Source: Burkholderiales bacterium (GTDB lineage: Bacteria; Pseudomonadota; Gammaproteobacteria; Burkholderiales; Burkholderiaceae_C). Taken from it: a stretch of 64,000 nucleotides of DNA. Position 1 is the first letter of the stretch; each line of letters opens with the position of its first letter. The notes beneath the pieces are model-generated. The model saw only the letters and a program-made list of their open reading frames with translations, ran no database searches and had not been told where the DNA came from. Both the position numbers and the translations under genes were made by a program. Positions 5,472 through 63,628 of the stretch are shown here, piece after piece. The stretch is from contig JANMXL010000064.1 of the NCBI GenBank assembly GCA_031380885.1, positions 5,842 to 69,841 on the forward strand. Reading direction: 5' to 3'.

Positions 5472-7562
5472 TCAGCCGCTATTCTCGTCGCCGCCGAGCT
5501 GCCGCCACAGGTAGGCAAATTCCATCGCTTGCAAATGCGCGCGCTGGGTGTTGTCGGCCGCGCCGCCGTGACCACCCTCGGTGTTTTCGTAGTAAAGCAG
5601 CGCATGGCCCAGTTCCATCATGCGGGCTGCCATCTTGCGGGCGTGTGCCGGGTGCACGCGGTCGTCACGGGTCGAGGTGGTGAACAGCACGAGTGGGTAA
5701 AGAGCGTCGGGCTTCAGGTTCTGATACGGGCTGTAGCGCGCGATGTGCGCCCAGTCTTCCAGAACGTCGGGGTTGCCGTACTCGGCCATCCACGAGGCGC
5801 CGGCCAGCAGCGTGTGGTAGCGCCGCATGTCGAGCAGCGGCACTTGGCAGACCACGGCGTTGAACAGCTCGGGCCGCCGGGTGAACACCGCGCCGACCAG
5901 CAGCCCGCCGTTGCTGCCGCCCATGATGCCGAGGTGCTTCGGACTCGTGACGCGCCGGTCGATCAGGTCTTCGGCCACCGCGATGAAGTCGTCGTAGCTG
6001 CGCTGCTTGTTTGCTCCGATGGCGGCTTGGTGCCAGGCCGGCCCGAACTCGCCGCCACCGCGGATGTTGGCCACCACCAGCGCGCCGCCACGTTCGAACC
6101 AGGCGCGGCCGTAGCTGCCGGAATACCACGGGTTCAGCGACACCTCGAAGCCGCCGTAGCCGTAGAGCAGCGTCGGCGTGCCGCCTTCGGCCTGCGCGTC
6201 GCGCGGCCAGACGATGAAGTAGGGCACGCGGGTGCCATCAGCGGACGTTGCGAAGCGCTGCTCGGTGCGCAGGCGGGTGGCGTCGAACAGCGCAGGGCGT
6301 GCTTTCAGCGGTTCGAGTGCGGGTTCACCGATCGGTGGCTGAGTGTGACCGAGCAGCACCGAATCGGGGGTAAGGAAATCGGTGTAGCCCAACATGAATC
6401 GCTCGGCCAGAAGGTCGTCGGCCTGCACCGGGTCGCACAGGCTGCGCACGCCGAGCGTGCCGGGGTGGGGTGCCTCGATGGCCCGTGCCTCGAAGCCGCC
6501 CGGCGTGCGCCGCCACAGTTCGAGCCGGCTCGCCACGTTGTCGAGCAGGTTGACGATGAGGTGCGTGCGCGTCGTCGAAAACCCGGCCAGCGAGCGCGTG
6601 GCGGTGGGCTCGAACAGCAGCGTGAAGACGCGCTCGCCTGCGAGATAGGCCGTCGCATCGGCGGCCAGCAGCGAGCCGCTCCGGTAGGTCGAACCCGCCA
6701 CCGTCCAGTCGCTGCGCAGCTCGATCAGCAGCGTGTCGATCGCATCGCCCGCGTGGTTCCAGAAGCTGAACGAGGCGTCGCTCGGCAGGTCGAACGGGAT
6801 CAGCCGATCACCGTCCAGCAGCACGTGCTGCTGGTGATAGAAATCGAGCGAACGGCTGAAGATCGTGCGTTCGTGGCCGGGCGTCAGATCGACCGACACG
6901 CTGACCGACACGTCGGTCGCTTCGCCCTCGAACACCGTGACGGCCGACGCCAGCGGCGTGCCGCGCGTCCAGCGCTGGACGAGGCGCGGGTAGCCGGAGT
7001 CGGTCAGGCTGCCGGGGCCGACATCGGTCCCGACGTACAGCGTGTTCATATCGACCCAGGTCACCTGTGACTTGGCTTCGGGCAGCGTGAAGCCGCCTTC
7101 GACGAATTGCTTCGCGGCGGTGTCGAACTCGCGCGTCACCGTCGCGTCGGCGCCGCCACGCGACAGTGACACCAGGCAGCGGTGTGGCTCCGTGTCGAGT
7201 GCGTTCGCACTGGCCCAGACCCAGTTCTCGCCCTCGGCCGCGGCCAGCGCGTCGATGTCGAGCACCGTCTCCCACGCCGGGTTCGGCGTGCGGTACTCGG
7301 CCAGCGTCGTGCGGCGCCACAGACCGCGCGGGTGCGTGTCGTCACGCCACAGGTTGTAGAAGTGATCGCCGCGCCGCGACACCTGCGGGATGCGCTCCTG
7401 CGAGTTCAGCACGTCCAGCAACTGCAGACGGATCGGTGCGTATTCGGGTCGCGCGGTCAGCAGGCCTTCGCTCTCGGCGTTGCGTTCGCGCACCCAGGCC
7501 AGTGCGCGTTCGCCGAGCACGTCTTCCAGCCAGCGATAGGGGTCGTCTTCGGTCGGGAGCAT
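5472..7562 (-). CDS. prolyl oligopeptidase family (S9) serine peptidase
   Basis: 696 aa. Nucleophile motif 'GGSNGGLL' and N-terminal 'DPYRWLED'. Confidence 0.9.
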   Translation of the reverse strand: MLPTEDDPYRWLEDVLGERALAWVRERNAESEGLLTARPEYAPIRLQLLDVLNSQERIPQVSRRGDHFYNLWRDDTHPRGLWRRTTLAEYRTPNPAWETVLDIDALAAAEGENWVWASANALDTEPHRCLVSLSRGGADATVTREFDTAAKQFVEGGFTLPEAKSQVTWVDMNTLYVGTDVGPGSLTDSGYPRLVQRWTRGTPLASAVTVFEGEATDVSVSVSVDLTPGHERTIFSRSLDFYHQQHVLLDGDRLIPFDLPSDASFSFWNHAGDAIDTLLIELRSDWTVAGSTYRSGSLLAADATAYLAGERVFTLLFEPTATRSLAGFSTTRTHLIVNLLDNVASRLELWRRTPGGFEARAIEAPHPGTLGVRSLCDPVQADDLLAERFMLGYTDFLTPDSVLLGHTQPPIGEPALEPLKARPALFDATRLRTEQRFATSADGTRVPYFIVWPRDAQAEGGTPTLLYGYGGFEVSLNPWYSGSYGRAWFERGGALVVANIRGGGEFGPAWHQAAIGANKQRSYDDFIAVAEDLIDRRVTSPKHLGIMGGSNGGLLVGAVFTRRPELFNAVVCQVPLLDMRRYHTLLAGASWMAEYGNPDVLEDWAHIARYSPYQNLKPDALYPLVLFTTSTRDDRVHPAHARKMAARMMELGHALLYYENTEGGHGGAADNTQRAHLQAMEFAYLWRQLGGDENSG

Positions 7563-45080: not shown

Positions 45081-45156
45081 GGGTTGTTAGCTCAGTTGGT
45101 AGAGCAGCGGACTTTTAATCCGTAGGTCGTGGGTTCGAGTCCCGCACAACCCACCA
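45081..45156 (+). tRNA. tRNA-Lys (anticodon UUU)
   Basis: 76 nt. Acceptor GGGTTGT/ACAACCC, D arm GCTCAGTTGGTAGAGC, anticodon loop CT-TTT-AA, T arm GTGGGTTCGAGTCCCGC, encoded CCA. Confidence 0.95.
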
Positions 45157-45194: not shown

Positions 45195-45270
45195 GGGCTC
45201 TTAGCTCAGTTGGTAGAGCAGCGGACTCTTAATCCGTAGGTCGAGTGTTCGAGTCACTCAGGGCCCACCA
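45195..45270 (+). tRNA. tRNA-Lys (anticodon CUU)
   Basis: 76 nt. Acceptor GGGCTCT/AGGGCCC, anticodon loop CT-CTT-AA, T arm GAGTGTTCGAGTCACTC, encoded CCA. Confidence 0.95.
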
Positions 45271-50900: not shown

Positions 50901-51840
50901 GTACGCGGGCAAGTACGCCGGCTACGCGATCGAGCGCGGCAAACTCAGCATGGACGTGTCGTACGCGATCACTGCCGATGGCCGCCTGGAGGCGAAGAAC
51001 CAGGTGATCCTGAACCAGCTGACCTTCGGCGAGCGCATCGACAGCCCAAGCGCCACCAAGCTGCCGGTGCTGCTGGCGGTGGCGCTGTTGACCGACCGCC
51101 ACGGCGTGATCGACCTCAACCTGCCGATCAGCGGCTCGCTGAACGACCCACAGTTCAGCGTCGCCGGCATCATCGTCAAGGTCATCTTCAACCTGATCGA
51201 AAAAGCCATTACCGCGCCTTTCTCGCTGATGTTCGGTGGCGGCAGTGAAGACCTCAGCGAAGTGGCCTTCGGTGTCGGCGTGCCGTATGTCACCGAGTCC
51301 GGTGCCGCGGCGCTGGACAAGGTGGCGCAGGCACTGGCCGATCGGCCCTCGCTGAAGATGACGGTGACCGGCGTGTCCGATCCGGCCACCGATCGCGACG
51401 GCTATGTGCAGGCGGCGCTCAATGCGCGCCTGGCGCAGGAACGCAAGAAGGAGGCGGCGCGCTCCGGTGCGGCAGCCACGGCGGCCCCTGCGCCCACGGC
51501 GCCGGTGGTCGCTTTGGTATTCGGCGCGGGCGAGCGCGATGAGCTGCTGAAGGCGGTCTACAAGGACACCGACATCCCGGACAAGCCGCGCAACCTGGTC
51601 GGGCTGGCCAAGAGTCTGCCACCTGCTGAAATGGAAGCCTTGCTGAAATCGACCATCGAAGTCACGTCCGATGCGATGCGCCAGCTGGCGCTGCAACGCG
51701 GCCTGGCGGTGCGCGATGCGCTGGTCGCCAAGGGCTTGCCGAGCGAGCGGCTGTTCATCGCGGCGCCGAAGGTGCGCAGCGCGGCCGACGGTGCCGAAGC
51801 CTGGCTGCCGAGCGCCAAGCTGTCGCTGACCAATGACTGA
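47953..51840 (+). CDS. very large DUF748-family exported/membrane-anchored protein (AsmA-like architecture)
   Basis: 1295 aa. N-terminal anchor 'GGALTVLWVLAWAIV', repetitive beta-rich body, DUF748-like 'FSDHFVRPNYSAELTELNG'. Confidence 0.75.
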   Translation: MKWFRRFGWAGGALTVLWVLAWAIVPPVLKSQAQQRLGEALGRSVTLGGVSFSPWSLELTLRDIVIGGAPGDAKALPLLKVARLYVNADISSLLHAAPVVEAFEIDAPELRVARTAPGHYDIDDLIARLQATTPEPPPSEPLRFALYNLKVSNAAVYVDDRPVHQQHRLEALNLGLPFLANLPSTIDVKVEPRLAFRFNGTPFDTGAQATPFAQTRQATLQLKMGELDLLPYIGYLPESLPVRLRGGSVAADLVLDFAMPLHAEPSAALRGSVGVNNLALDDAAGAPLLEWKRLAVALREVRPLHRELAFGAIELDAPTLHVNRDAAGRLNLATLAGTPSKAAAAPAVVASAVTTSRAHAAPWKVQVDALRLNGLNVLWADASVSPPAALALQAVDLKAGPLAYPFAADGAMPLSLQATLAGSAAGAPAQGSLTVDGRASDRQAQLDVKLSAFALEALAPYVSQSLPAQVSGRLAASAQLNWAAGDAPKLTVAHGEITLDDLQIADRVVAPAKGKPASTPPAIALKQFAVQGADVDVLARSVTLASVKVTQPALAMSRDREGVWNAQRWIKTTAPAAAPARPVAAFATTPASAPAPAPASGGDVGWRVDLRDVGIDGGSLRLDDAYVVGLPDTEPVRIDVRAIQLAVQALTLNGARTIAPAKVQFSARLLGPRDIDQAASQASDKSPAVALGAATSGVLDWRGQLGLQPLMAKGALTLDRFPLQAFEPYVRDQLPVRLLRAETGIKASVSVKALPAGLDIGVTGDVLLADVLVHSRPAAGAKPGFGNTDELLSWQSLKLSGVTLAMAPGRAPVIDITEAALADFYSRLVITEDGRFNLQDMSASRAAAPGDAASAPVATQAPPAPSAVTASPAASAASGVAAIAATPATPMQLSIGATQLANGRVDFSDHFVRPNYSAELTELNGSLGAFRSGSREMATLALHGRAAGTALLDISGQLNPTAQPLALNIRAKATDLELAPFSPYAGKYAGYAIERGKLSMDVSYAITADGRLEAKNQVILNQLTFGERIDSPSATKLPVLLAVALLTDRHGVIDLNLPISGSLNDPQFSVAGIIVKVIFNLIEKAITAPFSLMFGGGSEDLSEVAFGVGVPYVTESGAAALDKVAQALADRPSLKMTVTGVSDPATDRDGYVQAALNARLAQERKKEAARSGAAATAAPAPTAPVVALVFGAGERDELLKAVYKDTDIPDKPRNLVGLAKSLPPAEMEALLKSTIEVTSDAMRQLALQRGLAVRDALVAKGLPSERLFIAAPKVRSAADGAEAWLPSAKLSLTND

Positions 51841-53992
51841 CGCCTTGAACGTGCGCCGCGTCTTCAGGCTTCGCATTCAGGCAGTGCTGTCGGGTGCCGC
51901 TGTGCTCGCGTTGGTGTGCGATGCCCACGCTCAAGCGGGCCCGCCCGCCACGGTGCTTGACACTGTCGTTATCTCGGGCCAGCGGGCGCGCGAGCCCTCG
52001 TTCGACGTGCCCTCGGCGATCTCGGCTGTGACCCGTGACGCGATCGAGAACGCCGGCCCGCAGGTCAGTCTGGCCGAGGTGTTGAACCGGGTGCCGGGCA
52101 TCTCGGTGTTGAACCGCAACAACGACGCGCAGGATCTGCAGATGTCGATCCGCGGCTTCGGCGCGCGCTCGACCTTCGGCATCCGCGGCGTCAAGGTGCT
52201 GGTCGATGGCATCCCGGCGACGATGCCCGACGGCCAGGGCCAGGTGTCGAATGTGGCGCTGGGTTCTGTCGGGCGCATCGAGGTGCTGCGCGGCCCGTTG
52301 GCGCAGCTGTACGGCAATGCCGCCGGTGGCGTGGTGCAGGTGTTCACCGAGGACGATGCGCTGGTGCCGACGGGCACGTTCAGCGCCACGCGCAGCCGCT
52401 TTGGGCTGTGGAAGCTCGGCGTCAAGGCCAGCACCAGCACGCCCGCTTACGGCTTGACGATCGAAGGCGCCGAATTCCACACCGATGGGTTCCGCCCGCA
52501 CAGCGAGTCCACGCGGCGCCAGCTGAATGCGCGCTGGCAAAGCCAATGGACAGCCGACACCCATGTCGCCGTGGTGCTCAACGTGCTCGACCAGCCGATG
52601 TCGAAAGACCCGCTGGGCTTGACCGCCGCGCAGTTCCGCAGCCACCGCGCGGGCAGCAACCCGGCCTACCTCGCGGCGCTGGCGCAGGACCCGCGCAAGA
52701 CGGTGCGGCAGCAGCAGGTGGGCACCTCGATCGAGCACCGCTTGAGCGACGCCACTGCGCTGTCGGCGCGGGTCTACATCGGCTCGCGCGAGCTGGCGAA
52801 CGCGCTGTCGATCCCGATCGCGGCGCAGGGCACGCCGACGTCGAGCGGCGGCATCGTGGACTTCGACCGCACCTACGGCGGCGCGGCGCTTCAGGGCAAC
52901 CACCGCATCGCACTCGGCGACGGCCGCGCTTTGAAGCTGACCGCAGGCGTCGAGGTGGAAACCTACCGCGAAGACCGCCAGGGCTACGTCAACACGCGTG
53001 GCGAGCGCGGTGCCCTGAAGCGCGACGAGGTCAACACCGTGCGCAGCACCGATGTGTTCGTGCAAGCGGCCTACGACCTGACCTCCACGTGGACGCTGAC
53101 CGCCGGCGCGCGGCACAGCCATGTCAGGTTCGACTCCGCCGACCGCTACATCGCTGCGGGCAACCCCGACGACAGCGGCCGGCTCGCTTTCAGCGCGACC
53201 AACCCGGTGGCAGGCCTCGCCTGGAAGGCGACGCCGACGCTCAATCTGTACGCCAATATCGGCCGCGGTCTCGAGACGCCGACCGTCAATGAGCTGTCGT
53301 ACCGACCGGGTGGCCAGACGGGTCTCAACACCGACTTGAAAGCCTCGCGCAGCCGCCACGCCGAGGTCGGCGCGAAGTGGAAGATCAGCAACTACCAGCG
53401 CCTTGATGTGGCGGTGTTCGACATCGAGACCGACGACGAGCTCGTCGTTGCCAGCAACGCAGGCGGCCGCTCGACCTTCAAGAACGCCGGGCGCACCTCG
53501 CGGCGCGGCATCGAGCTGTCGCACGATGCCCAGCTCAGCGACACCTTGCACAGCGTCGTCAGCCTGACCGCGCTGCGCGCACGCTTCGACGACGCGTTCG
53601 TCAGCGGCTCGGGCAGCGGCGCTGCCCTGGTGCGCGCCGGCAACCGATTGCCCGGCACGCCTGATCGCCATCTGTACGCCGAACTCGCCTGGACCCCGAA
53701 TCAGCCCTGGGGCGGCTTCAGCGCTGCGGCCGAAGGGGTGCACACCGGCCGGCTGTACGTCAACGACACGAACACCGACGCCACCTCGACCCGCACGCTG
53801 TTCAACCTGCGCGCCCGCTGGAAGCAGACCGTCGGTGGCTGGCAGTTCAGCGAGCTGTTGCGCATCGACAACCTGACGAATCGGTATGACGCCGGATCGG
53901 TCATCGTCAACGAAGGCGCTGGTCGCTACTTCGAGACCGCACTGCCGCGCACCTGGACCGCCGGCATCACCGCGACGTACGCCTGGCAGTGA
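51833..53992 (+). CDS. TonB-dependent receptor
   Basis: Signal peptide, plug 'LDTVVISGQR' and 'IEVLRGP', C-terminal aromatic 'TATYAWQ'. 8-nt overlap with the DUF748 gene. Confidence 0.9.
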   Translation: MTDALNVRRVFRLRIQAVLSGAAVLALVCDAHAQAGPPATVLDTVVISGQRAREPSFDVPSAISAVTRDAIENAGPQVSLAEVLNRVPGISVLNRNNDAQDLQMSIRGFGARSTFGIRGVKVLVDGIPATMPDGQGQVSNVALGSVGRIEVLRGPLAQLYGNAAGGVVQVFTEDDALVPTGTFSATRSRFGLWKLGVKASTSTPAYGLTIEGAEFHTDGFRPHSESTRRQLNARWQSQWTADTHVAVVLNVLDQPMSKDPLGLTAAQFRSHRAGSNPAYLAALAQDPRKTVRQQQVGTSIEHRLSDATALSARVYIGSRELANALSIPIAAQGTPTSSGGIVDFDRTYGGAALQGNHRIALGDGRALKLTAGVEVETYREDRQGYVNTRGERGALKRDEVNTVRSTDVFVQAAYDLTSTWTLTAGARHSHVRFDSADRYIAAGNPDDSGRLAFSATNPVAGLAWKATPTLNLYANIGRGLETPTVNELSYRPGGQTGLNTDLKASRSRHAEVGAKWKISNYQRLDVAVFDIETDDELVVASNAGGRSTFKNAGRTSRRGIELSHDAQLSDTLHSVVSLTALRARFDDAFVSGSGSGAALVRAGNRLPGTPDRHLYAELAWTPNQPWGGFSAAAEGVHTGRLYVNDTNTDATSTRTLFNLRARWKQTVGGWQFSELLRIDNLTNRYDAGSVIVNEGAGRYFETALPRTWTAGITATYAWQ

Positions 53993-54077
53993 CCACCGGA
54001 AAGAATGCCCGGCCCACGGCGACCCAGGGTCTTGGATTGCTTCCGATAATCCGCACATCAGATCGAAGGAGATGGTC

Positions 54078-54614
54078 ATGGCACAAGAAGTCATCACACT
54101 GGGCGGCGGTTGTTTCTGGTGCACCGAGGCGGTGTTTGAGCAGGTTGAAGGCGTCACCGCGGTCGAATCGGGCTACAGCAATGGCCAAGTCGCCAGGCCC
54201 ACGTACGAGCAGGTCTGCAGTGGCAACACCGGCTGCGTCGAGGTGATCCGCGTGGCTTTCGACAACGAGCGCATCAGCCTGCGCGAGGTGCTGGAGATCT
54301 TCTTCGTGATCCACGACCCGACCACGCTGAACCGCCAGGGTGCCGACACCGGCACCCAGTACCGCTCGGGCATCTACTTCCATCGGCCGGAGCAAGAGGC
54401 CGTGGCCCGCGAGGTGATGGACGAGGTCGACCAGAAGGTGGCCGGCAAGCTGGTCACCGAGCTGCTGCCGGTGGCCGACTATTCACGCGCCGAGGATGAC
54501 CACCAGCACTACTACGCGAACCACCCGACCCAGGGCTATTGCGCGATGGTCGCTGCGCCGAAGATCGAGAAATTCCGCAAGACCTTCGCCAGCCGGGTCA
54601 AGCAGACCGCGTGA
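54078..54614 (+). CDS. msrA: peptide-methionine (S)-S-oxide reductase
   Basis: 'GGGCFWCTEAVF' active site. AAGGAG sits 6 nt upstream of the chosen ATG. Confidence 0.95.
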   Translation: MAQEVITLGGGCFWCTEAVFEQVEGVTAVESGYSNGQVARPTYEQVCSGNTGCVEVIRVAFDNERISLREVLEIFFVIHDPTTLNRQGADTGTQYRSGIYFHRPEQEAVAREVMDEVDQKVAGKLVTELLPVADYSRAEDDHQHYYANHPTQGYCAMVAAPKIEKFRKTFASRVKQTA

Positions 54615-55018
54615 TGAAGACCGCCTGGCCCCGCGTGGCCTTCGCTGCGGCGCTGTGGTTAAGCGCGCTGCTGGTGCAATCGATCGGGTTGCTGCACGGC
54701 TATGTGCATCCGCAGGGCGGATACGCCCACCAGGCCGGGCAGGCGCAGGCCGGTGTGCGCCTCGGCGCTGACCCCGAGGCGATCACGGCAGCGCAGCCAG
54801 CGCACGGCTGGCTGCAGGCGATGTTTGCCGGTCACCACGGCGGCAGCGCCGGTTGCACCCTGTTCGATCAGCTGACGCACGCCGACCTCCTGCACGACCT
54901 GCCGGTGCTTGCCCTCGCCTTTGCGGCGCCGGTTCAACCCGACGCCGTCCATGCCGCGTGGCACCACGCCACGCAAGTCACGGGCTTCCTCGCCCGCGCA
55001 CCGCCCGCGATCGGCTGA
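54614..55018 (+). CDS. small exported His-rich protein, DUF2946-like
   Basis: Signal/TM N-terminus, several His and a single Cys ('GHHGGSAGCTLFDQL'). Positioned ahead of a TonB-dependent receptor, as I recall DUF2946 genes usually are. The family call is tentative. Confidence 0.45.
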   Translation: MKTAWPRVAFAAALWLSALLVQSIGLLHGYVHPQGGYAHQAGQAQAGVRLGADPEAITAAQPAHGWLQAMFAGHHGGSAGCTLFDQLTHADLLHDLPVLALAFAAPVQPDAVHAAWHHATQVTGFLARAPPAIG

Positions 55019-55180
55019 ATGGCGCTTGCCCGGCCGCTGGCCGGGCTCACACGCGCGTTCTGACTCCCTCACGCACGCCGCTGTCCGCGACGGACCGCGG
55101 TGTCACCTTATTCAAAGCGTCATCGGTGCGCCGGGCCTTCAGGTCGCGCGTCGGTGTTCGCATGTTCCGAGTTCCTCATC

Positions 55181-57292
55181 ATGCACCCACGTTTTCATCC
55201 TCCGCGCAGCGCGCTGGCGCTGTCCTTGAGCCTGGTCTTTGCGGCCGTTGTTCCGCGGCTCGCTCAGGCGCAGAGCCGCGCCGATGCACCCTCTGCGGCC
55301 ACCACAGCGCCGCCGTCACGCACCCTCGACACCGTCGTGATCACCGGCAACCCGCTGGGCAGCGTGCAGATCGCGGCACCGGTGTCGGTGCTCGCAGGCG
55401 ACGGCCTGGTGCTGCGACGCGGCAGCTCGCTCGGCGACACGCTGTCCGGTCTGCCCGGTGTCTCGTCGACCTACTTCGGGCCCAACGCCAACCGGCCAGT
55501 GATCCGCGGGCTCGACGGCGACCGCGTGCGCATCCTCAGCAACGCGGGCGCCTCGATCGACGCCTCGTCATTGAGCTACGACCATGCGGTGCCAATCGAC
55601 CCGCTGATCGTCGACCGCATCGAGGTGCTGCGCGGCCCGGGCGCGCTGTTCTACGGCGGCAGCGCGGTCGGCGGTGTCGTCAACACGCTGGACAACCGGA
55701 TTCCGCGTGCGCCACTGTCCGGCTTCTCCGGTGCGGCCGAAGCCCGGCTGGGCGGCGCCGCCCGCGAGCGCAGCGGTGCGGCGCTGATCGAGTCCGGCAA
55801 CGACCGCTTTGCCGTTCATGCCGATGTGTTCGGCCGCGACACCTCGAACCTGCGCGTGCCGCGCTACACGCCGGTGGCGGATGGCGTGCCATTGGACCGC
55901 AGCCGACGCGTGCGCAATTCAGCGGCCGAGACAAGTGGTGGTGCGCTCGGTGGATCGCTGTTCTTTGGTGGCGGAGCCGAGCCCATGCGAGGCCACATCG
56001 GCTTGTCGGTGGACACCTATGACAGCGACTACGGCATCACCGCCGAGCCCGATGTGAAGATCAAGCTGAAGCGCGACCATGTCGGTTTCGCCAGCGAGCT
56101 CAAGATCACCGACGGCCCGCTGCGGGCCCTGCGGCTGAATGCCAACTACACCGACTACCAGCACAAGGAAATCGAAGGCAGCGGCGCGGTTGGCACGGTG
56201 TTCAGCAGCACAGGCTACGACCTGCGCCTGGAGGCCGAACACGCCCAGGTCGGCCCGCTGCGCGGCGTGGTCGGCGTGCAGCACGAGGACTTCGATTTCT
56301 CGGCGCTGGGCGAGGAGGCGTTCGTGCCGAAGACGACTACCCGCAAGACCGGGCTGTTCGCACTCGAAGAGCTGGCCTGGGTCGGCGGCACGCTGTCCAC
56401 AGGCGCGCGATTCGAGTACGCCGAAGTCGATTCCAGAGGCGATGTCGGCGCGGGCTCGCCGAAGTTCGGCAACGCGCTTCAACGCAACTTCTCCTTGCAC
56501 AGCTTTTCGCTCGCCAACGTCACCCCGCTGTCATCCACGTGGTCGTTGACCGGAACGCTCGGCACCACCGAGCGCGCGCCCACCTACTTTGAGCTGTACG
56601 CCAATGGCGTTCATGCCGCGACCGGATCCTACGAGCAGGGCAACACCCGCTTGAAGGCCGAGCGCGGCAGCAACCTCGATCTGGCGTTGCAATGGAAGAC
56701 GGAAACCGATCAGCTGCGCCTGGGCACGTTCTATTCACGCTTCTCGCGCTTCATCTCGCTCGATGCGTCGGGCGAGCGGGTGGATGAGTCCGGCACGGTG
56801 GTGCCCGACGGCACACCCGACAGCGTTCCGTTCTATCGCTTCAACTCGGTCAAAGCGCGCTTGTACGGCGTCGAGATCGAAGGCCGCAAACGCCTGCTCG
56901 ATGTGCCGTGGACGCTGGATGGCACGACGAAATTCGACGCCACCCGCGCCACCAACCGCACGACCAGCGAGCCGCTGCCGCGCGTTGCGCCGTGGCGGCT
57001 GAACCTCGGACTCGATGCGGCACGGGGCCCGTGGGCGGCGCGCTTCGAGGTCGATCATTCGGCGCGTCAAAGCCGGGTGCCCGACACCGACCGGCCGACG
57101 GCGGGCCATACCCTGGTCAACCTGTCTCTGTCGCAGCGCATCAGCGTGAACCTGGCTGACGCGATCTGGTTCGTCAAGTTGACCAACCTGGGCAACGAGC
57201 GGGCGTTCAGCGCCTCGACGATCCAGACGATCCGTGGCCTGTCGCCGTTGCCGGGGCGTGCGCTGCAGGTGGGGATGCGCGTGAGCTTCTGA
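55181..57292 (+). CDS. TonB-dependent receptor
   Basis: Signal peptide, plug 'LDTVVITGNP' and 'IEVLRGP', C-terminal 'GMRVSF'. Confidence 0.9.
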   Translation: MHPRFHPPRSALALSLSLVFAAVVPRLAQAQSRADAPSAATTAPPSRTLDTVVITGNPLGSVQIAAPVSVLAGDGLVLRRGSSLGDTLSGLPGVSSTYFGPNANRPVIRGLDGDRVRILSNAGASIDASSLSYDHAVPIDPLIVDRIEVLRGPGALFYGGSAVGGVVNTLDNRIPRAPLSGFSGAAEARLGGAARERSGAALIESGNDRFAVHADVFGRDTSNLRVPRYTPVADGVPLDRSRRVRNSAAETSGGALGGSLFFGGGAEPMRGHIGLSVDTYDSDYGITAEPDVKIKLKRDHVGFASELKITDGPLRALRLNANYTDYQHKEIEGSGAVGTVFSSTGYDLRLEAEHAQVGPLRGVVGVQHEDFDFSALGEEAFVPKTTTRKTGLFALEELAWVGGTLSTGARFEYAEVDSRGDVGAGSPKFGNALQRNFSLHSFSLANVTPLSSTWSLTGTLGTTERAPTYFELYANGVHAATGSYEQGNTRLKAERGSNLDLALQWKTETDQLRLGTFYSRFSRFISLDASGERVDESGTVVPDGTPDSVPFYRFNSVKARLYGVEIEGRKRLLDVPWTLDGTTKFDATRATNRTTSEPLPRVAPWRLNLGLDAARGPWAARFEVDHSARQSRVPDTDRPTAGHTLVNLSLSQRISVNLADAIWFVKLTNLGNERAFSASTIQTIRGLSPLPGRALQVGMRVSF

Positions 57293-58717: not shown

Positions 58718-59043
58718 ACCGCTTGTTTTCGTCACATTGGGCATCGCGCTCGCCATGGGGTCAGTGTCATGACCCGCAAGCAACGAAACACGATTCCGCT
58801 CTTGTCACCGCCGATCGATGCACGTAGGCGTTGGAAGCGGTCACGGTTTTGGGCTGTCTGCGCCCGCATCGCCTGTCTTTCTGGATGTGGCTGCGATTCA
58901 GTCGGTGATCGACTGCATCCAGATTTGAACTTATCTCGTAAGTGGTACAGCGCAACTCGACTCCCCGGAGCGGGCACGCCATTCAGGTCGCAGCACCTTG
59001 GTGCTGCGCGTGAACCCCACAACCTAGAAATGAGACACCACCC

Positions 59044-60783
59044 ATGAAAACAACACAGACGCCATCCACTCGCCTGCTGCCGATCATCGGCGCGCTGGCC
59101 GCTGCCTACGGACTCAGTGCGGCGCTGCCGGCGCACGCTTCCAGCCACCGCGAGGCACCGTCGATCGGAGGCTCGTCGCGCGTCGATGCGACCGACTTTT
59201 ACATGTTTAACAGCTATGAGACCGGCCGCGGCGACTTCGTCTCGATCATGGCGAACTACCAGCCATTCCAAGATCCATACGGCGGCCCGAACTTCTTCCC
59301 GCTCGACCCGAACGCGCTGTACGAAATCCACATCGACAACAACGGCGACGGCAAAGAAGACATCACCTTTCAGTTCCACTTCAAGAACAACTTGAAAGGC
59401 ACTGCCGCATCGCCAGGCATTCAGATTCCGATCCCACCCACCGCGAGCACACCGTTGGTGGCGATTCCGCTGACTCAGGCCGGTGGAGTCACCGTGCCGA
59501 ATTCGCCCAATCTGAATGTGAATGAAACCTTCACCGTCGACATCATCCGCGGTAACCGTCGTACCGGCACCAAGGCCGCGATCACCAACGTGGCGGGCGG
59601 CTCGGCCACCTTCGACAAGCCTGCGGACAACATTGGCAGCAAGACCATCCCCGACTACACCGCTTACGCCAATCAGCATATCTACAGCGTCAACATCCCT
59701 GGCTGCTCGATACCGGGCAAGGTGTTCGTCGGTCAGCGCAAAGACCCGTTCGCCGTCAACGTGGGGGTGATTTTCGATCTGGTGAACGTGCCTTTGTCCG
59801 TCATCACCAACCCAGCGTTGAAAAATGCCGCGCGCGACCCGGCGAACAACGCTGGTAAAGATGTCCTCGAAGACAAGAACGTCACCACCCTGGCCATCGA
59901 AGTGCCGAAGTCTTGTCTGACCTCCGGCACCGATCCTGTCATCGGCGGCTGGACGACGGCCAGCCAGCGCCAAGGCCGCCTGCTGAACCCGATTCCACGT
60001 CGCGGCCACGGCACCACAGCCGTCAACGGCGGCGCCTGGACCCAGGTGTCGCGCCTGGGCATGCCCCTGGTCAACGAGGTGGTTATCGGCTTGCCTGACA
60101 AGGATCGTTTCAACGGCTCTAAGCCAGCGGGGGATGTGCAATTCGCCACGTACGTGACGAATCCGACGCTGCCGCGCCTGCTTGAGATTGCTTTCGCCAC
60201 GCCCGCCGGCGCGATTGCCCCGACCAACCTGCCGCGCACCGACTTGTTGAACGTGTTCTTGAACGGCATCGCAGGGGTCAACCGGCCGACCACCAGCCTG
60301 ACCTCGGCTGGCCTCGTTCCGGCTGAAATGCTGCGCCTGAACACTGCCAACGCTGCAGTGCCCTTGGCTTCGCAAAACCGCTTGGGCGTGGCCGGTGAGC
60401 TGGTGCGTGTGGGCGGTGCAGCCAACCTTGGCAGCGCCGTGGACTTGGCCGGGTTCCCGAACGGTCGCCGTCCGAATGACGACGTGGTCGACATTTCGTT
60501 GATCGCTGTGGCGGGTGGGCTTTGCCTGGCCAACAGCGTCGGCAATCTGTCGGCGATCAACGCCACCAACAACGCCAACGTGCTGGGCTTGAACACCTTC
60601 ACCATTCCCGGCGCCACGCCGACAGTGTTGTCTTCGACTTGCAATGTCGCCGCCGTGCCGCAAGGTGCCACCGCACTTTCGCTGCATGACGGTATCGACC
60701 AAGCAGTCGACACGCCGAACTATGTGCGCACCAGCACCTTCCCGTACTTTGCCAAGCCGATTCCCGGCGCCGGCACGAACTAA
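59044..60783 (+). CDS. DUF4331-family secreted protein
   Basis: A signal peptide ending 'PAHA' is followed by the family-typical 'SSHREAP' and 'DATDFYMF'. 579 aa. Confidence 0.85.
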   Translation: MKTTQTPSTRLLPIIGALAAAYGLSAALPAHASSHREAPSIGGSSRVDATDFYMFNSYETGRGDFVSIMANYQPFQDPYGGPNFFPLDPNALYEIHIDNNGDGKEDITFQFHFKNNLKGTAASPGIQIPIPPTASTPLVAIPLTQAGGVTVPNSPNLNVNETFTVDIIRGNRRTGTKAAITNVAGGSATFDKPADNIGSKTIPDYTAYANQHIYSVNIPGCSIPGKVFVGQRKDPFAVNVGVIFDLVNVPLSVITNPALKNAARDPANNAGKDVLEDKNVTTLAIEVPKSCLTSGTDPVIGGWTTASQRQGRLLNPIPRRGHGTTAVNGGAWTQVSRLGMPLVNEVVIGLPDKDRFNGSKPAGDVQFATYVTNPTLPRLLEIAFATPAGAIAPTNLPRTDLLNVFLNGIAGVNRPTTSLTSAGLVPAEMLRLNTANAAVPLASQNRLGVAGELVRVGGAANLGSAVDLAGFPNGRRPNDDVVDISLIAVAGGLCLANSVGNLSAINATNNANVLGLNTFTIPGATPTVLSSTCNVAAVPQGATALSLHDGIDQAVDTPNYVRTSTFPYFAKPIPGAGTN

Positions 60784-60796
60784 GGAGCCCACCATC

Positions 60797-61054
60797 ATGG
60801 CCAAGCAAACCTTGCTATTGATGAGCTTCGCATCGGTGCTGTTGACCGCTTGCGGAGGTGGTGGTGGTGGTGGTGGATCCATCCCGGTCACTGAAGCGGT
60901 GCCTGCGGCCGCGTCCAGCGACCCAGTGGCGGCCACCAACTATGTCACCGCGTTGACGGCAGTGCCTGCGACAACGACCGACACGCTGGAGCCAGTCACG
61001 GTTCCCGACACGCTGGCCTCCAGCGACACGACCGAGCCGGCTGCCATCCCCTGA
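60797..61054 (+). CDS. small lipoprotein with a Gly8 linker
   Basis: AAGGAG RBS, lipobox 'LLTAC' followed by GGGGGGGG. 85 aa. Confidence 0.6.
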   Translation: MAKQTLLLMSFASVLLTACGGGGGGGGSIPVTEAVPAAASSDPVAATNYVTALTAVPATTTDTLEPVTVPDTLASSDTTEPAAIP

Positions 61055-61149
61055 CGAACGGTAAGAGAGGGTAAGAGAGAATCCCGGCGCGATGCCCCTT
61101 GCGGGGCAGCGCGCCGGTTTTTTGAGTGAGTCCCACAGGAGCGAGGGCG

Positions 61150-62319
61150 ATGTTTCAAGTTTCAGCCTGGCGCTTCGCTATGGTGCTGGCCGGTGGCGTG
61201 CTGGCGGTGTGGTGGAGCCAGGGCGCGCATGCCGAGCCGCTGAACCCGACCCGGGACACCGAAGTGATCGAGATACTGCCCGCCGGTGGCAGCTCAGCCG
61301 AAGACCGGCAACTGAGGCGCTTGTGGGTCAATCACCCCACCGACGTGGCAACGGCCGTGTCGTTGGCCCGGCGCTACCTTTCGCGGGCGCGTGATCTGGG
61401 CGACCCACGCTACGCCGGGCAGGCGCTGGCCGTCCTGCAATCGTGGCCGAATGCGAAAACCGCACCCGACGATGTGTTGCTGTTGCAGGCCACGGTGCAG
61501 CAGTACCTGCATGAGTTCGATATTTCGGCCGGTCACCTGGAGATGCTGGTGGCGCGCCAACCCGACCACGCGCAGGCGTGGTTGACGCTGGCCACGGTGC
61601 GCCGTGTGCAGGGCCGTTATGCCGCCTCCAACGCGGCCTGCCTGGGTCTGCAAGCGGCCGGCGCGCGCCTCGAATCGCAAGCCTGCCTGGCCGAAAACGC
61701 CAGCCTGCGCGGTGACAACGAGTCGGCGCGCAGCATGCTGCAGCAGCTGCTGACGCCGCCACGCTTGCCCGCATCGACAAAGTCCTGGCTGCTGACCACG
61801 CTGGCCGAGCTGGAGCAGCGTGATGGCAAGCCCGAAGCGGCTGAAGCGGACTTCAAGAAAGCACTCGAAGCCGAGACCGGTGGCTACACGCTGCTGACCT
61901 ACATCGACTTTCTGTTCGAACAGGGCCGTGAAGACGAAGCCCTGGCGTTGCTGGTGCCGCAGCCGCGCACCGACGCGGTGATGCTGCGGCTGGCGATGGC
62001 CGGTGCACGGCTGAAAACGCCGAACGCGGCCGTCGATGCCCGACTCGTGCGCGACGCGATGGCGCAGGCCAATCTGCGACCGGGTGCGCGCGGCACGCAT
62101 GCCCGCGAGCAAGCCATGTTCGCCTTGTGGGTCGATGGCAAACCCGCCGCTGCGCTGGCACTGGCGCGTGAGAACGTGCGCAAGCAGCGCGAACCGCTGG
62201 ACCTGCTGGTGCTGGCGCATGCCGCGCGCGCCGCGGGCGACGCCAAGGCGATCCGCGAAGCCGATCAACTGCGCAAGGAGATGGGTCTGCACGACCAGCG
62301 CCTCGATGCCTTGCTCTGA
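61150..62319 (+). CDS. exported tetratricopeptide-repeat protein
   Basis: Signal peptide 'VLAGGVLAVWWSQGAHA' and TPR-like helical repeats. Confidence 0.7.
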   Translation: MFQVSAWRFAMVLAGGVLAVWWSQGAHAEPLNPTRDTEVIEILPAGGSSAEDRQLRRLWVNHPTDVATAVSLARRYLSRARDLGDPRYAGQALAVLQSWPNAKTAPDDVLLLQATVQQYLHEFDISAGHLEMLVARQPDHAQAWLTLATVRRVQGRYAASNAACLGLQAAGARLESQACLAENASLRGDNESARSMLQQLLTPPRLPASTKSWLLTTLAELEQRDGKPEAAEADFKKALEAETGGYTLLTYIDFLFEQGREDEALALLVPQPRTDAVMLRLAMAGARLKTPNAAVDARLVRDAMAQANLRPGARGTHAREQAMFALWVDGKPAAALALARENVRKQREPLDLLVLAHAARAAGDAKAIREADQLRKEMGLHDQRLDALL

Positions 62320-62320
62320 G

Positions 62321-63550
62321 GTGTCGGTGACATCGATCGTTCGACGCAAGTGGCGGGCTCTGGCATGGCTGGTCTGCGGTCTGGTGGCCGGCCCGGCAAT
62401 GGCGCACAAGGGCAGCGATGCCTACCTGCAGCTGAAGCTGGGCGGAGCGGCATCGACGCTGCGTGTCGATCTGGCGCTGCGCGATCTCGACGCGGTGCAA
62501 GACATCGATGCCGATGCCAATGGCCAGCTGACTTGGGGCGAGGTGAAGGCCGCACTCCCGGCCATCGAGCGCTATCTCGCGGCCCGGGTGCTGGTCGATG
62601 GCTGCCAGTGGCAGTCGGTGGCGACGGGTCTCGAACGTCGCGCCGATGGCGTTTATGCGGCGCTGACCTGGTCGGGCAGCTGTGCGGTCGACGCCACGTT
62701 GCCGACGATCCGCTACAGCGCGCTGCGCGAGATCGACCCGACGCACCGCGCCATCGCCAAGATCGAGCGGCCTGGCAGCGATCCGGTGGTGCAGGTGCTC
62801 GACCCGACCAAGGTGTTGCCGCCGGCGGCGAAGGCCGCTGCGTCGGCTGCGGGCGTGGGCGTTGCCGCAGCGGTGTCGGCTGGTGTCACAGCGAGCGGCC
62901 CTGAGGCCGGTGTGACGGCGGCTGCTCAGCCGGAGCCGACAGCGTCTGCTGGCTTCGTCAGGGAAGGCATGCGCCACATCCTCGGCGGCTACGACCATGT
63001 GCTGTTTCTGCTGGCGCTGCTGCTGCCTGCGGTGATGCGCCGAACGACGACGGGTTGGCAGCCGGTGGAGCGCCTGGCGCAGGCCATCATGCCGGTGGCG
63101 GTGATCGTGACCGCGTTCACCGTCGCGCATTCGGTGACATTGACGCTGGCCGGCTTGAAGCTGGTGTCGCTGTCGTCGGCGTTCATTGAACCCGCGATCG
63201 CGGTGACCATCGTGCTCGCCGCGATAGACAACCTGACGCCGATTTTCCGCGGGCGCCGGGCCGTCGTGACCTTCTTGTTCGGCCTGATCCACGGTTTCGG
63301 TTTCGCCGGCGTGCTGGGCGAGCTGAACCTGCCGACGGTGCAGTTCGCCTGGGCGCTGTTTCAGTTCAACCTGGGCATCGAGTTGGGGCAGTTGTTCATC
63401 GTCGCGATTGCTGTCACCGCGCTGTTCGCATTTCGACGACAGGCCTGGTATCCGTTCGTGGTGATCCGCGGTGGCTCGGCGGTGGCCATCGTCATCGGCT
63501 CGCTCTGGTTCATCGACCGCACGGCCAACCTGGCGATCCTGCCGTTTTGA
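62321..63550 (+). CDS. HupE/UreJ-family membrane protein with an N-terminal periplasmic extension of about 190 aa
   Basis: C-terminal half has 'HILGGYDHVLFLLALLLP' and 'FGLIHGFGFAG' HupE-type motifs. GTG start at 62321 or 62327. Confidence 0.8.
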   Translation: MSVTSIVRRKWRALAWLVCGLVAGPAMAHKGSDAYLQLKLGGAASTLRVDLALRDLDAVQDIDADANGQLTWGEVKAALPAIERYLAARVLVDGCQWQSVATGLERRADGVYAALTWSGSCAVDATLPTIRYSALREIDPTHRAIAKIERPGSDPVVQVLDPTKVLPPAAKAAASAAGVGVAAAVSAGVTASGPEAGVTAAAQPEPTASAGFVREGMRHILGGYDHVLFLLALLLPAVMRRTTTGWQPVERLAQAIMPVAVIVTAFTVAHSVTLTLAGLKLVSLSSAFIEPAIAVTIVLAAIDNLTPIFRGRRAVVTFLFGLIHGFGFAGVLGELNLPTVQFAWALFQFNLGIELGQLFIVAIAVTALFAFRRQAWYPFVVIRGGSAVAIVIGSLWFIDRTANLAILPF

Positions 63551-63585
63551 CGCTTAAAATTTCCGGCTGCACAGGTTCAAACAGG

Positions 63586-63614
63586 GCGCGGTTGTGGACC
63601 GCGCTTTTTCTTTT
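63586..63614 (+). terminator. rho-independent terminator
   Basis: GCGCGGT-tgtgg-ACCGCGC followed by TTTTTCTTTT. Confidence 0.65.
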
Positions 63615-63628
63615 CCGACGGAGCTTTG

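Follow-up and report, generated by a model that had tools for sequence, protein, structure and literature searches.

A 64-kb stretch of DNA from a Burkholderiales bacterium (64,000 nt in full; referred to as the window) carries four same-strand genes at positions 59044-63550, which encode a protein of the DUF4331 family, a small lipoprotein, a tetratricopeptide repeat (TPR)-like protein and a permease of the HupE_UreJ_2 family. The four genes almost certainly form a functional unit. We lean towards the view that this unit is an extracytoplasmic module for the uptake of a transition metal, either Ni/Co or Cu(II), driven by an extracytoplasmic function (ECF) promoter of the ECF18 (SigK-like) type.

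The layout of the cluster given in a preliminary description of the window, with gaps of 13, 95 and 1 nt between successive genes, was confirmed by the open reading frames and the sequence. The leader placed upstream of it was also found and measured 326 nt. All four products were exported or membrane proteins, as that description had stated, judging from signal peptides, a lipobox and hydrophobic segments.

Conservation of the gene cluster

DUF4331, TPR and HupE-like genes had been proposed as a recurring neighborhood, and we found that neighborhood to be real and to extend across phyla. The DUF4331 alignment retrieved 80 loci of other genomes, all from Burkholderiales. Genes in these loci were called by third-position GC and then clustered; TPR and HupE genes were counted with phmmer among the 62 loci that had at least 3 kb of downstream sequence. 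Both lay downstream of DUF4331 in 39 of these 62 loci, and the two (clusters c3 and c2) were always found together. A homolog of the small lipoprotein (cluster c1) was located directly 3′ of DUF4331 in 39 Burkholderiales loci. The DUF4331-lipoprotein pair also occurred without TPR and HupE genes, beside unrelated genes such as lipA and lipB. The gene-neighborhood statistics proposed for PF14224 (DUF4331) therefore returned conserved synteny.

The order DUF4331-TPR-HupE was also observed in Pseudoalteromonas, Marinobacter, Lichenicola, Nitrospiraceae, Agitococcus, Chitinimonas and a gammaproteobacterial locus (L091), that is, in Gammaproteobacteria, Alphaproteobacteria and Nitrospirota besides Burkholderiales. 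In Pseudoalteromonas, the gene order ran from an ECF sigma factor and an anti-sigma factor through DUF4331 and an Ig-like lipoprotein to TPR and then HupE_UreJ_2; the small gene was not annotated in the Lichenicola locus; and in one locus of Pseudomonadota (L092), DUF4331, a small gene and HupE were present and a SnoaL_2 protein occupied the TPR position. On a Streptomyces plasmid, on a second Streptomycetaceae plasmid and in Nostoc punctiforme, DUF4331 and TPR genes were followed by a permease of the NicO/DsbD_2 type. A metagenome scan seeded with the Streptomycetaceae DUF4331 protein gave 30 loci with enough downstream DNA, probably actinobacterial. A TPR gene followed DUF4331 in 28 of these, both a TPR gene and a NicO-type permease gene did so in 22, and a class F sortase gene stood between DUF4331 and TPR in 7 (for example, L099, L110 and L116). 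In Adhaeribacter (Bacteroidota), a DUF4331 protein with a type IX secretion system (T9SS) sorting tail was encoded between a TonB-dependent receptor gene and a TPR gene. Because the arrangement recurs in dozens of independent loci across phyla, it is far beyond chance.

A distinct subfamily of TonB-dependent receptors was linked to DUF4331. Its members shared 31-44% identity over approximately 650 residues, from Bacteroidota to Nitrospirota, and came from a Nitrospiraceae locus, Agitococcus, Adhaeribacter and five Burkholderiales loci (L088:12322-14358; L089:5601-7697, minus strand; L085:4113-6377, minus strand; and cluster c20 in L028, L048, L051, L056 and L080). Two plug motifs, FLRGFxxDHGTD (with DHGTD) and HxHGxGY, were invariant, and no specific NCBIfam model matched the subfamily. 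A dedicated receptor beside DUF4331 argues for uptake.

In locus L092, a DUF4198 gene (5698-6585, minus strand) adjoined an ECF sigma and ChrR-like anti-sigma pair facing the DUF4331 operon. This was a single instance; we take DUF4198 to be a CbiK/NikK-like periplasmic Ni/Co component.

An ECF18-type promoter upstream of DUF4331

A dyad search over 87 regions upstream of DUF4331 returned the motif TGCATCC(A/G)-N16-(G)CGTA(A/T). In the window, the motif lay approximately 100 nt upstream of the DUF4331 start codon, and GCATCC-N14-19-CGTA had this single match in the 64 kb. The strict motif was present in 56 of the 87 regions, 140-270 nt before the SSH codon (the start of the Ser-Ser-His sequence described below). 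A relaxed form, [ACG]ATCC-N15-18-CGT[AT], which includes the TGAATCC and xCATCC variants, was present in 76 of the 87 (2.5 expected from shuffles) and was also found in Pseudoalteromonas, Agitococcus, Chitinimonas, the Nitrospiraceae locus and Adhaeribacter. The published ECF18 consensus is xGCATCC / xxCGTATx (PMC13492112 Table 4), and an ECF18 promoter has been given as TGCATCTT-Xn-CGTA in a supplement that also lists DUF4331 both at position +2 of ECF18s13 and as part of the ECF214s1 context (bioRxiv 10.1101/2019.12.11.873521 supplement). No upstream region of DUF4331 matched an ECF11-type promoter (GTGATC-N-CGTA).

An ECF18-type promoter in the leader points to control by an ECF sigma and anti-sigma pair. 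Because the 64-kb window contained no ECF sigma or anti-sigma gene, the sigma factor would be encoded elsewhere in the genome. In many related loci, SigK-like sigma genes together with anti-sigma genes of the RskA_C type or the ChrR-like (Cupin_7) type were located beside or inside the operon (sigma and RskA-type pairs adjoined the cluster in L082, L089, L090 and others), and the adjoining sigma genes scored best against SigK-type models. Loci whose anti-sigma gene was ChrR-like had the TGAATCC or ACATCC promoter variants, or none. No sigma-70-like promoter was found in the window leader and no Rfam family scored above threshold there; nine distant loci likewise had no riboswitch or other known RNA. 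In the literature, the signals of the ECF18/19 sigma group are unrecognized or redox-linked.

Genes for DUF4394, fasciclin and DUF3455 proteins were located a few kilobases from DUF4331 on two Streptomycetaceae plasmids (L084 and L093) and on a Marinobacter plasmid (L083). Published surveys name the same three families as neighbors of ECF18 sigma factors (bioRxiv 10.1101/2019.12.11.873521 supplement). This proximity may reflect a common regulon of exported proteins under SigK-type control.

The predicted mature N-terminus of DUF4331

The DUF4331 protein of the window matched PF14224 with E = 6e-138 and 461 bits (cut-off 27), the full profile (1-421) aligning with residues 33-572, and had its closest relatives in Rhizobacter, Roseateles, Leptothrix and Methylibium. 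The family is large: 4330 clusters at 50% identity matched PF14224 at E ≤ 0.001, with members in Proteobacteria, Actinobacteria, Cyanobacteria, Bacteroidota and Nitrospirota.

Residues 1-32 were predicted to be a signal peptide (ending LPAHA), giving a mature N-terminus Ser-Ser-His-Arg-Glu-Ala-Pro, encoded from 59140. The site AHA/SSH (the slash marks cleavage) obeyed the -3/-1 rule, and the Pfam model opened exactly at SSHREAP. This heptapeptide was invariant in two alignments (A1 and A3), and its His35 was also invariant in a diverse third one (A2); the alignments with invariant His35 covered Proteobacteria, Actinobacteria and Nostoc, and a Bacteroidota member kept SSHREAP. Among 83 representatives of 50%-identity clusters that retained an N-terminus, cleavage was predicted exactly two residues before the invariant His in all 83, so that every mature chain began X-X-H (SSH in 76, ASH in 5, SGH in 1 and AGH in 1). 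In 82 of them the residue at -1 was A, G or S, and in the remaining one it was P; position -3 was small or aliphatic. The Nostoc protein would be cleaved at ALA/SDH. Signal-peptide length varied while the distance from cleavage site to His was fixed, which suggests that the free alpha-amine and His3 act together in the manner of an amino-terminal Cu(II)- and Ni(II)-binding (ATCUN) site. In the predicted mature chain, the third residue is His, position 2 is not Pro and the alpha-amine is free. On these features of the sequence, NH2-Ser-Ser-His is a predicted ATCUN-type Cu(II)/Ni(II) motif.

A structure prediction for DUF4331, suggested in the preliminary description, gave a confident model. AlphaFold2, run on the mature chain with a 146-sequence alignment, reached a predicted local distance difference test (pLDDT) score of 85.5 and a predicted template modeling (pTM) score of 0.90, and residues 1-11 were the sole disordered or flexible segment; a 17-sequence alignment gave a pLDDT of 49 and was unusable. 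A Foldseek comparison of the model with the PDB found no relative (best E 0.02, template modeling (TM) score ≤ 0.14), and a sequence-profile search for solved relatives, which included profile A2, found none. Foldseek matches to P19/FetP were rejected as noise (E 0.17-0.37, TM ≤ 0.14). Many Asp, Arg, Asn and Gln residues of DUF4331 were invariant, as in the segment NGRRPxDDVVD. A literature search on DUF4331, PF14224 and IPR025566 found only a passing mention, in an ECF-classification supplement (bioRxiv 10.1101/2019.12.11.873521).

On a Paracoccus plasmid (L081, 6914-15548), DUF4331 and the small lipoprotein gene lay beside type II secretion genes (gspE, F, J, K, L and M), with neither a TPR nor a permease gene, and secretion of DUF4331 in some Proteobacteria is a possibility. 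In Actinobacteria (L084:6875-9267, L093:7860-10525 and the 7 metagenomic loci with a sortase gene), DUF4331 ended in a sorting signal and the next gene encoded a class F sortase; DUF4331 may be a natural substrate of class F sortases.

The permease and its N-terminal domain

The permease matched PF13795 (HupE_UreJ_2) over residues 212-373 (E = 1.5e-45, 155 bits, cut-off 24.5) and did not match the classical Ni/Co family PF04955 at E ≤ 0.01. Among the homologs, only the Pseudoalteromonas permease reached PF04955 with E = 5.7e-4 and 19.9 bits, under the cut-off of 23. A literature search on PF13795 and HupE_UreJ_2 returned no papers. The protein consisted of a signal peptide (ending PAMA), an extracytoplasmic N-terminal domain, an Ala-rich linker and six transmembrane segments. 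The additional domain previously noted was present and comprised approximately 185 residues before the first hydrophobic segment.

The first mature residue of the permease was predicted to be His (at 62405, AMA/HKGSD), and a mature His1 was present in 41 of 41 HupE-type homologs. NicO-type permeases likewise matured to His (AAA/HPLGNF and ADA/HPLGNF). In at least 90% of the 41 homologs, the N-terminal domain kept H1, S4, D5, Y7, D27, D35, W44, E46, C67, C93, D111 and H114, and the membrane domain kept H191, D197, H198, H242, E262, H296 and E326. The HupE signature H-x3-G-x-D-H (H191-D197-H198; HILGGYDH) was found in the first transmembrane segment of all 41. No Cys or Met was conserved in their membrane domain, which would suit a borderline divalent cation rather than Cu(I). 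The N-terminal domain contained an EF-hand-like loop, DADANGQLTWGE; matches to EF-hand and DUF6702 models were below threshold. Searches for solved relatives of the permease or of its N-terminal domain (profile A4) yielded sub-threshold EF-hand-like matches only, and a homolog search with the N-terminal domain alone returned 24 fragments, which were uninformative on architecture. The NicO/DsbD_2-type permeases were 488-626 residues long, with long His-rich loops and an N-terminal domain of their own of approximately 250 residues. Genes for hydrogenase, urease or a B12 or Ni regulator, and riboswitches, were absent from the surroundings of the cluster both in the window and in those related loci that were inspected.

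Direction of transport is where a first alternative enters. With RcnA-like export from the cytoplasm by the permease, DUF4331 as a periplasmic or extracellular sink and induction through the ECF system by envelope or metal stress, the cluster would serve metal detoxification, sequestration or efflux, which we judge improbable. Stress responses and Ni/Co resistance (CnrH) are typically governed by ECF sigma/anti-sigma pairs, the His-rich loops of the NicO-type partners resemble those of the exporter RcnA, and metal-resistance genes were found nearby in some loci (Cu-ATPase, CopCD and, for chromate, ChrA and ChrB). However, the dedicated TonB-dependent receptor, in one case with TonB adjoining, was linked to DUF4331 in four phyla, and such receptors import; characterized HupE/UreJ proteins are also importers; and an abundant secreted protein whose N-terminal motif captures metal with high affinity would suit scavenging better than efflux.

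A second alternative dispenses with the metal. DUF4331 would then be an extracytoplasmic enzyme, binding protein or surface protein of a SigK/ECF18-type envelope or redox-stress regulon that also takes in fasciclin, DUF4394 and DUF3455 proteins; a small organic solute would be the cargo of the LysE-superfamily membrane protein; and SSHREAP would have its use in folding, in docking (onto the TPR protein, for example) or in catalysis. We regard this as unlikely, although less so than efflux. The unrecognized or redox-linked signals of ECF18/19 would be in keeping with it, as would the ECF18 neighbors near DUF4331 in Streptomyces and Marinobacter, the invariant Asp, Arg, Asn and Gln residues (as in an enzyme or a Ca-stabilized secreted protein), sortase attachment in Actinobacteria, the T9SS tail in Bacteroidota and the binding of peptide termini by TPR proteins in general. 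It is countered by the two permease types, both from families with Ni/Co carriers and both retaining membrane His, Asp and Glu residues and His-rich loops; by the fixed spacing of cleavage site and His in 83 of 83 DUF4331 proteins and the His1 of 41 of 41 permeases, which together point to coordination by the N-terminal amine; and by the invariant plug histidines of the linked receptor.

The lipoprotein, the TPR protein and the internal hairpin

The small lipoprotein had the lipobox LLTAC, kept in 42 aligned homologs, within the sequence MAKQTLLLMSFASVLLTAC/GGG, in agreement with the lipobox pattern [LVI][ASTVI][GAS]C. Its Gly8 linker was encoded by a perfect (GGT)6.7 tract (60857-60876), which may be prone to slippage; linker length varied among homologs. 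The C-terminus carried a conserved acidic motif (SDTTEP in the window protein). No His, Cys or Met was conserved in the homolog alignment, and Pfam and NCBIfam scans of the window protein gave no family match. Unannotated genes for 74-83 residues were found at the lipoprotein position in Paracoccus, Marinobacter, Nitrospiraceae, Agitococcus and Chitinimonas.

The TPR protein, whose signal peptide ended at AHA/EPLNP, was matched by five TPR models with E values of 2e-4 to 7e-3, all under the curated cut-offs; the weak matches included TPR_19, TPR_16 and a PrsT-like model. Its homologs passed the cut-offs of TPR_14, ANAPC3 and TPR_19.

A GC-rich hairpin followed by U6 stood between the lipoprotein and TPR genes and ended 26 nt before the TPR start codon. 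The RNA fold of 61055-61135 had an energy of -37.5 kcal/mol (z = -4.1), and none of 200 shuffles was equally stable. A simple terminator scan had overlooked this element. L012, as well as 4 of 24 related loci, had a comparable hairpin and U-run after its lipoprotein gene. Owing to the internal hairpin, the cluster may not be a simple four-gene transcript. The hairpin probably attenuates transcription, in such a way that DUF4331 and the lipoprotein outnumber the TPR protein and the permease. Its position coincided with the split between the two evolutionary sub-modules, DUF4331-lipoprotein and TPR-permease.

A perfect 10-nt tandem duplication (GGTAAGAGAG, two copies, 61060-61079) was located just past the lipoprotein stop codon.

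Proposed function

Under the uptake model, DUF4331 would be exported and cleaved, exposing NH2-Ser-Ser-His on a flexible tail, and this X-X-His (ATCUN-type) site would capture a divalent metal. The HupE_UreJ_2 permease of the inner membrane would receive the metal at its N-terminal His1 domain and import it through a membrane site lined by His, Asp and Glu. The exported TPR protein could be an adaptor between DUF4331 and the permease, and the small lipoprotein a partner of DUF4331 or a tether for it, the hairpin keeping these first two products in excess over the other two. In the complete modules found elsewhere, the dedicated TonB-dependent receptor would carry the metal across the outer membrane, or metal-loaded DUF4331 would deliver the metal, and the sigma and anti-sigma genes are part of the operon or adjoin it.

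Metal import is the most economical explanation, supported by the pairing with two permease families of Ni/Co type, the amine/His N-termini on both extracytoplasmic partners, the dedicated receptor with its plug histidines and the surface attachment or secretion of DUF4331 in single-membrane bacteria and Bacteroidota. Periplasmic capture and delivery of a metal had been proposed for the cluster beforehand. The switch between the two Ni/Co-type permease families, X-X-His in 83 of 83 proteins, the permease His1 and the plug histidines of the receptor support that idea; the function itself continues to be deduced from such features. Ni(II)/Co(II) is favored by the permease families and the His-rich loops. 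Cu(II) must be taken seriously as well, since it is the ion best bound by ATCUN sites and N-terminal His sites and since several loci had copper genes nearby.

Several observations weigh against this interpretation. Control by an ECF sigma/anti-sigma pair is atypical of classical Ni, Co and Zn uptake systems, and no metal riboswitch was found in the window leader or in nine distant loci (classical metalloregulator sites were not searched). The X-X-His tail was a low-confidence part of the AlphaFold2 model, and the residues REAP were conserved after the His, which suggests a role of the N-terminus beyond a minimal ATCUN site. The literature search found no experiment or solved structure tying DUF4331 to a metal. 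The N-terminal domains of the HupE-type and NicO-type permeases were not detectably homologous (hhalign probability 2.8%), and we do not claim them to be the same domain. We know of no characterized member of PF13795, and the LysE superfamily includes exporters such as RcnA. Approximately one-third of the Burkholderiales loci had DUF4331 and the lipoprotein without an adjoining permease. As to which metal is carried, copper-related genes (CopCD, Cu-ATPase, Cu/Zn superoxide dismutase and DUF305) were present in several loci, so the metal may be other than Ni(II)/Co(II).

A broader form of the uptake model can be put forward only tentatively, and we doubt it more than we credit it. DUF4331 would be a metallochaperone or protein metallophore of new fold, binding Ni(II)/Cu(II) through Ser-Ser-His; it would be a principal output of SigK/RskA-type ECF sigma factors (ECF18, ECF19, ECF214 and ChrR-type relatives), whose signal would be the availability of metal in the envelope; and, with the TonB receptor and a permease of Ni/Co type, it would form a hitherto overlooked uptake route in at least five phyla. 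In the same reading, DUF4331 would be periplasmic in this bacterium, sortase-anchored in Actinobacteria and T9SS-secreted in Bacteroidota.

DUF4331 is a large family with no assigned function or solved structure and hardly any literature. If the uptake model were true, it would represent a new class of extracytoplasmic metal-capture protein, and the cluster would open a first way into the function of the HupE_UreJ_2 permeases and of their N-terminal domain. For ECF18/SigK-like sigma factors, it also provides a conserved promoter target that is easy to assay, along with a physiological theme that is plausible. The model yields sharp predictions that can be tested at little cost, namely the mature N-terminus, binding of Ni/Cu that depends on His3 and promoter activity that responds to metal.

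Comparison with known systems

The existing literature does not account for the cluster. In outline it follows a known paradigm: a binding protein works together with a permease, in some cases also with a receptor in the outer membrane, and an ECF sigma factor controls them. HupE/UreJ proteins are secondary Ni/Co permeases (for example, those of Rhizobium leguminosarum and cyanobacteria). The window permease resembled them in its six transmembrane segments, in H-x3-G-x-D-H in the first of these, in its conserved His residues and in the mature N-terminal His. It differed in belonging to PF13795 rather than PF04955, in its extra domain of approximately 185 residues with a Cys pair and an EF-hand-like loop, in being linked to a TPR protein and DUF4331 rather than to hydrogenase or urease genes, and in its ECF promoter (no riboswitch was found; a NikR site was not looked for).

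The copper uptake systems CopC/CopD and YcnI/YcnJ combine an exported Cu(II)-binding protein, with an N-terminal His/amine site, and a membrane permease. The N-terminal motifs of DUF4331 and of its permease would depend, as theirs do, on exact signal-peptide cleavage; unlike those proteins, DUF4331 had no kinship to them in sequence or fold, carried X-X-His instead of His1 and was paired with a permease of another superfamily. FetMP, FtrABCD (P19) and EfeUOB, which carry iron, pair a periplasmic metal-binding protein with a permease of the LysE superfamily or the ILT type. The present cluster likewise had a soluble extracytoplasmic protein, a putative metal binder, beside a permease of the wider LysE superfamily; the iron systems differ in having no TPR partner or ECF18 promoter, and the Foldseek similarity was insignificant.

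ATCUN motifs (NH2-X-X-His) are found in albumin and in the ectodomain of human Ctr1, where the motif feeds a transporter. The predicted S-S-H of DUF4331, with no Pro at position 2 and on a flexible tail, is similar; it differs in being followed by invariant R-E-A-P and in standing on a folded protein of 547 residues. Among TonB-dependent metal receptors and protein metallophores (ZnuD, OprC with azurin, and MnoT with TseM), the likeness lies in the receptor with plug His residues beside DUF4331 in other genomes and in the secretion or surface attachment of DUF4331 in some phyla. The window, unlike those systems, had neither a receptor of this subfamily nor a linked secretion system, and hand-over of the metal is hypothetical.

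TGCATCC-N16-CGTA fits the ECF18 consensus of the SigK-RskA systems (M. tuberculosis SigK, P. putida RpoT and C. metallidurans RpoP), and the sigma factors of related loci fit SigK-type models and had partners with RskA_C domains. The differences are that the known regulons (mpt70/83, the ttgGHI pump and hemT) do not include DUF4331, that the window had no sigma gene and that some loci use a ChrR-like (Cupin_7) anti-sigma factor.

Upstream genes and other features of the window

Positions of the cluster, its signals and the genes upstream are listed in Table 1. A link between the cluster and the two TonB-dependent receptors upstream had been hinted at, and it did not stand: the receptors are of the wrong subfamily, no ECF18-type promoter precedes them and unrelated genes lie between. 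Their similarity to the DUF4331-linked subfamily was confined to approximately 110-270 residues (23-28% identity) or lacking altogether, and between them and the cluster stand a MobA-like gene and, on the opposite strand, pdxH. The label "DUF2946-like," applied to the small gene at 54611-55018, had to be dropped, as no Pfam or NCBIfam model matched even at E ≤ 5.

We consider it very improbable, and largely refuted by synteny, that the cluster is part of a larger copper or metal island with the two receptors, msrA and this small gene. The genes do lie within 7 kb of each other, one receptor partly resembles ZnuD and copper receptors, the small upstream protein is His-rich, and MsrB (SelR) is listed as an ECF18 neighbor (bioRxiv 10.1101/2019.12.11.873521 supplement). 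Against this stand, in addition to the intervening genes, the distant receptor sequences and the loss of the DUF2946 label, the single ECF18-type promoter of the window and the 80 related loci, in which the upstream genes did not recur beside DUF4331. The genes at 51833-57292 appear unrelated to the DUF4331 module.

Table 1 Features of the DUF4331 cluster and of the region upstream (window coordinates)
Feature	Position	Strand	Details
TonB-dependent receptor, most like PqqU	51833-53992		578 bits, below cut-off 1200
msrA	53886-54614		PMSR, E 2e-60
Small His-rich exported open reading frame	54611-55018		No family match
Second TonB-dependent receptor	55100-57292		Partly similar to ZnuD and copper receptors
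Intergenic leader, MobA-like gene to DUF4331 gene	58718-59043	+	326 nt
ECF18-type promoter	58914-58940	+	-35 TGCATCC 58914-58920; 16-nt spacer; -10 CGTA(AG) 58937-58940
DUF4331 gene	59044-60783	+	579 residues; Pfam PF14224
Small lipoprotein gene	60797-61054	+	85 residues; 13-nt gap after DUF4331
Internal terminator-like element	61084-61123	+	14-bp GC-rich hairpin 61084-61117, then U6 61118-61123
TPR-like protein gene	61150-62319	+	389 residues; 95-nt gap after lipoprotein gene
HupE_UreJ_2 permease gene	62321-63550	+	409 residues; 1-nt gap after TPR gene
Terminator-like site 3′ of permease gene	63583-63617	+	63583-63607 plus T-run; 11-bp stem with 6 GC pairs

The "strong terminator" reported after the cluster was recovered in part: the 11-bp stem was clear, and the folding energy of the surrounding 75 nt was unremarkable (z = -1.05). 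The TPR gene had an alternative GTG start at 61126, and the permease gene, if not begun at 62321, had one at 62327 with GAGG 5 nt upstream.

Just past the terminator-like site, thrS began at approximately 63629. Of the 62 Burkholderiales loci with at least 3 kb of downstream sequence, 22 had thrS immediately 3′ of the module, which indicates an insertion site conserved in the lineage; in longer loci, thrS was followed by infC, rplT and pheST. The window DNA was high in GC (63-70%), and two adjoining tRNA-Lys genes were found at 45081-45156 and 45195-45270, with anticodons TTT and CTT.

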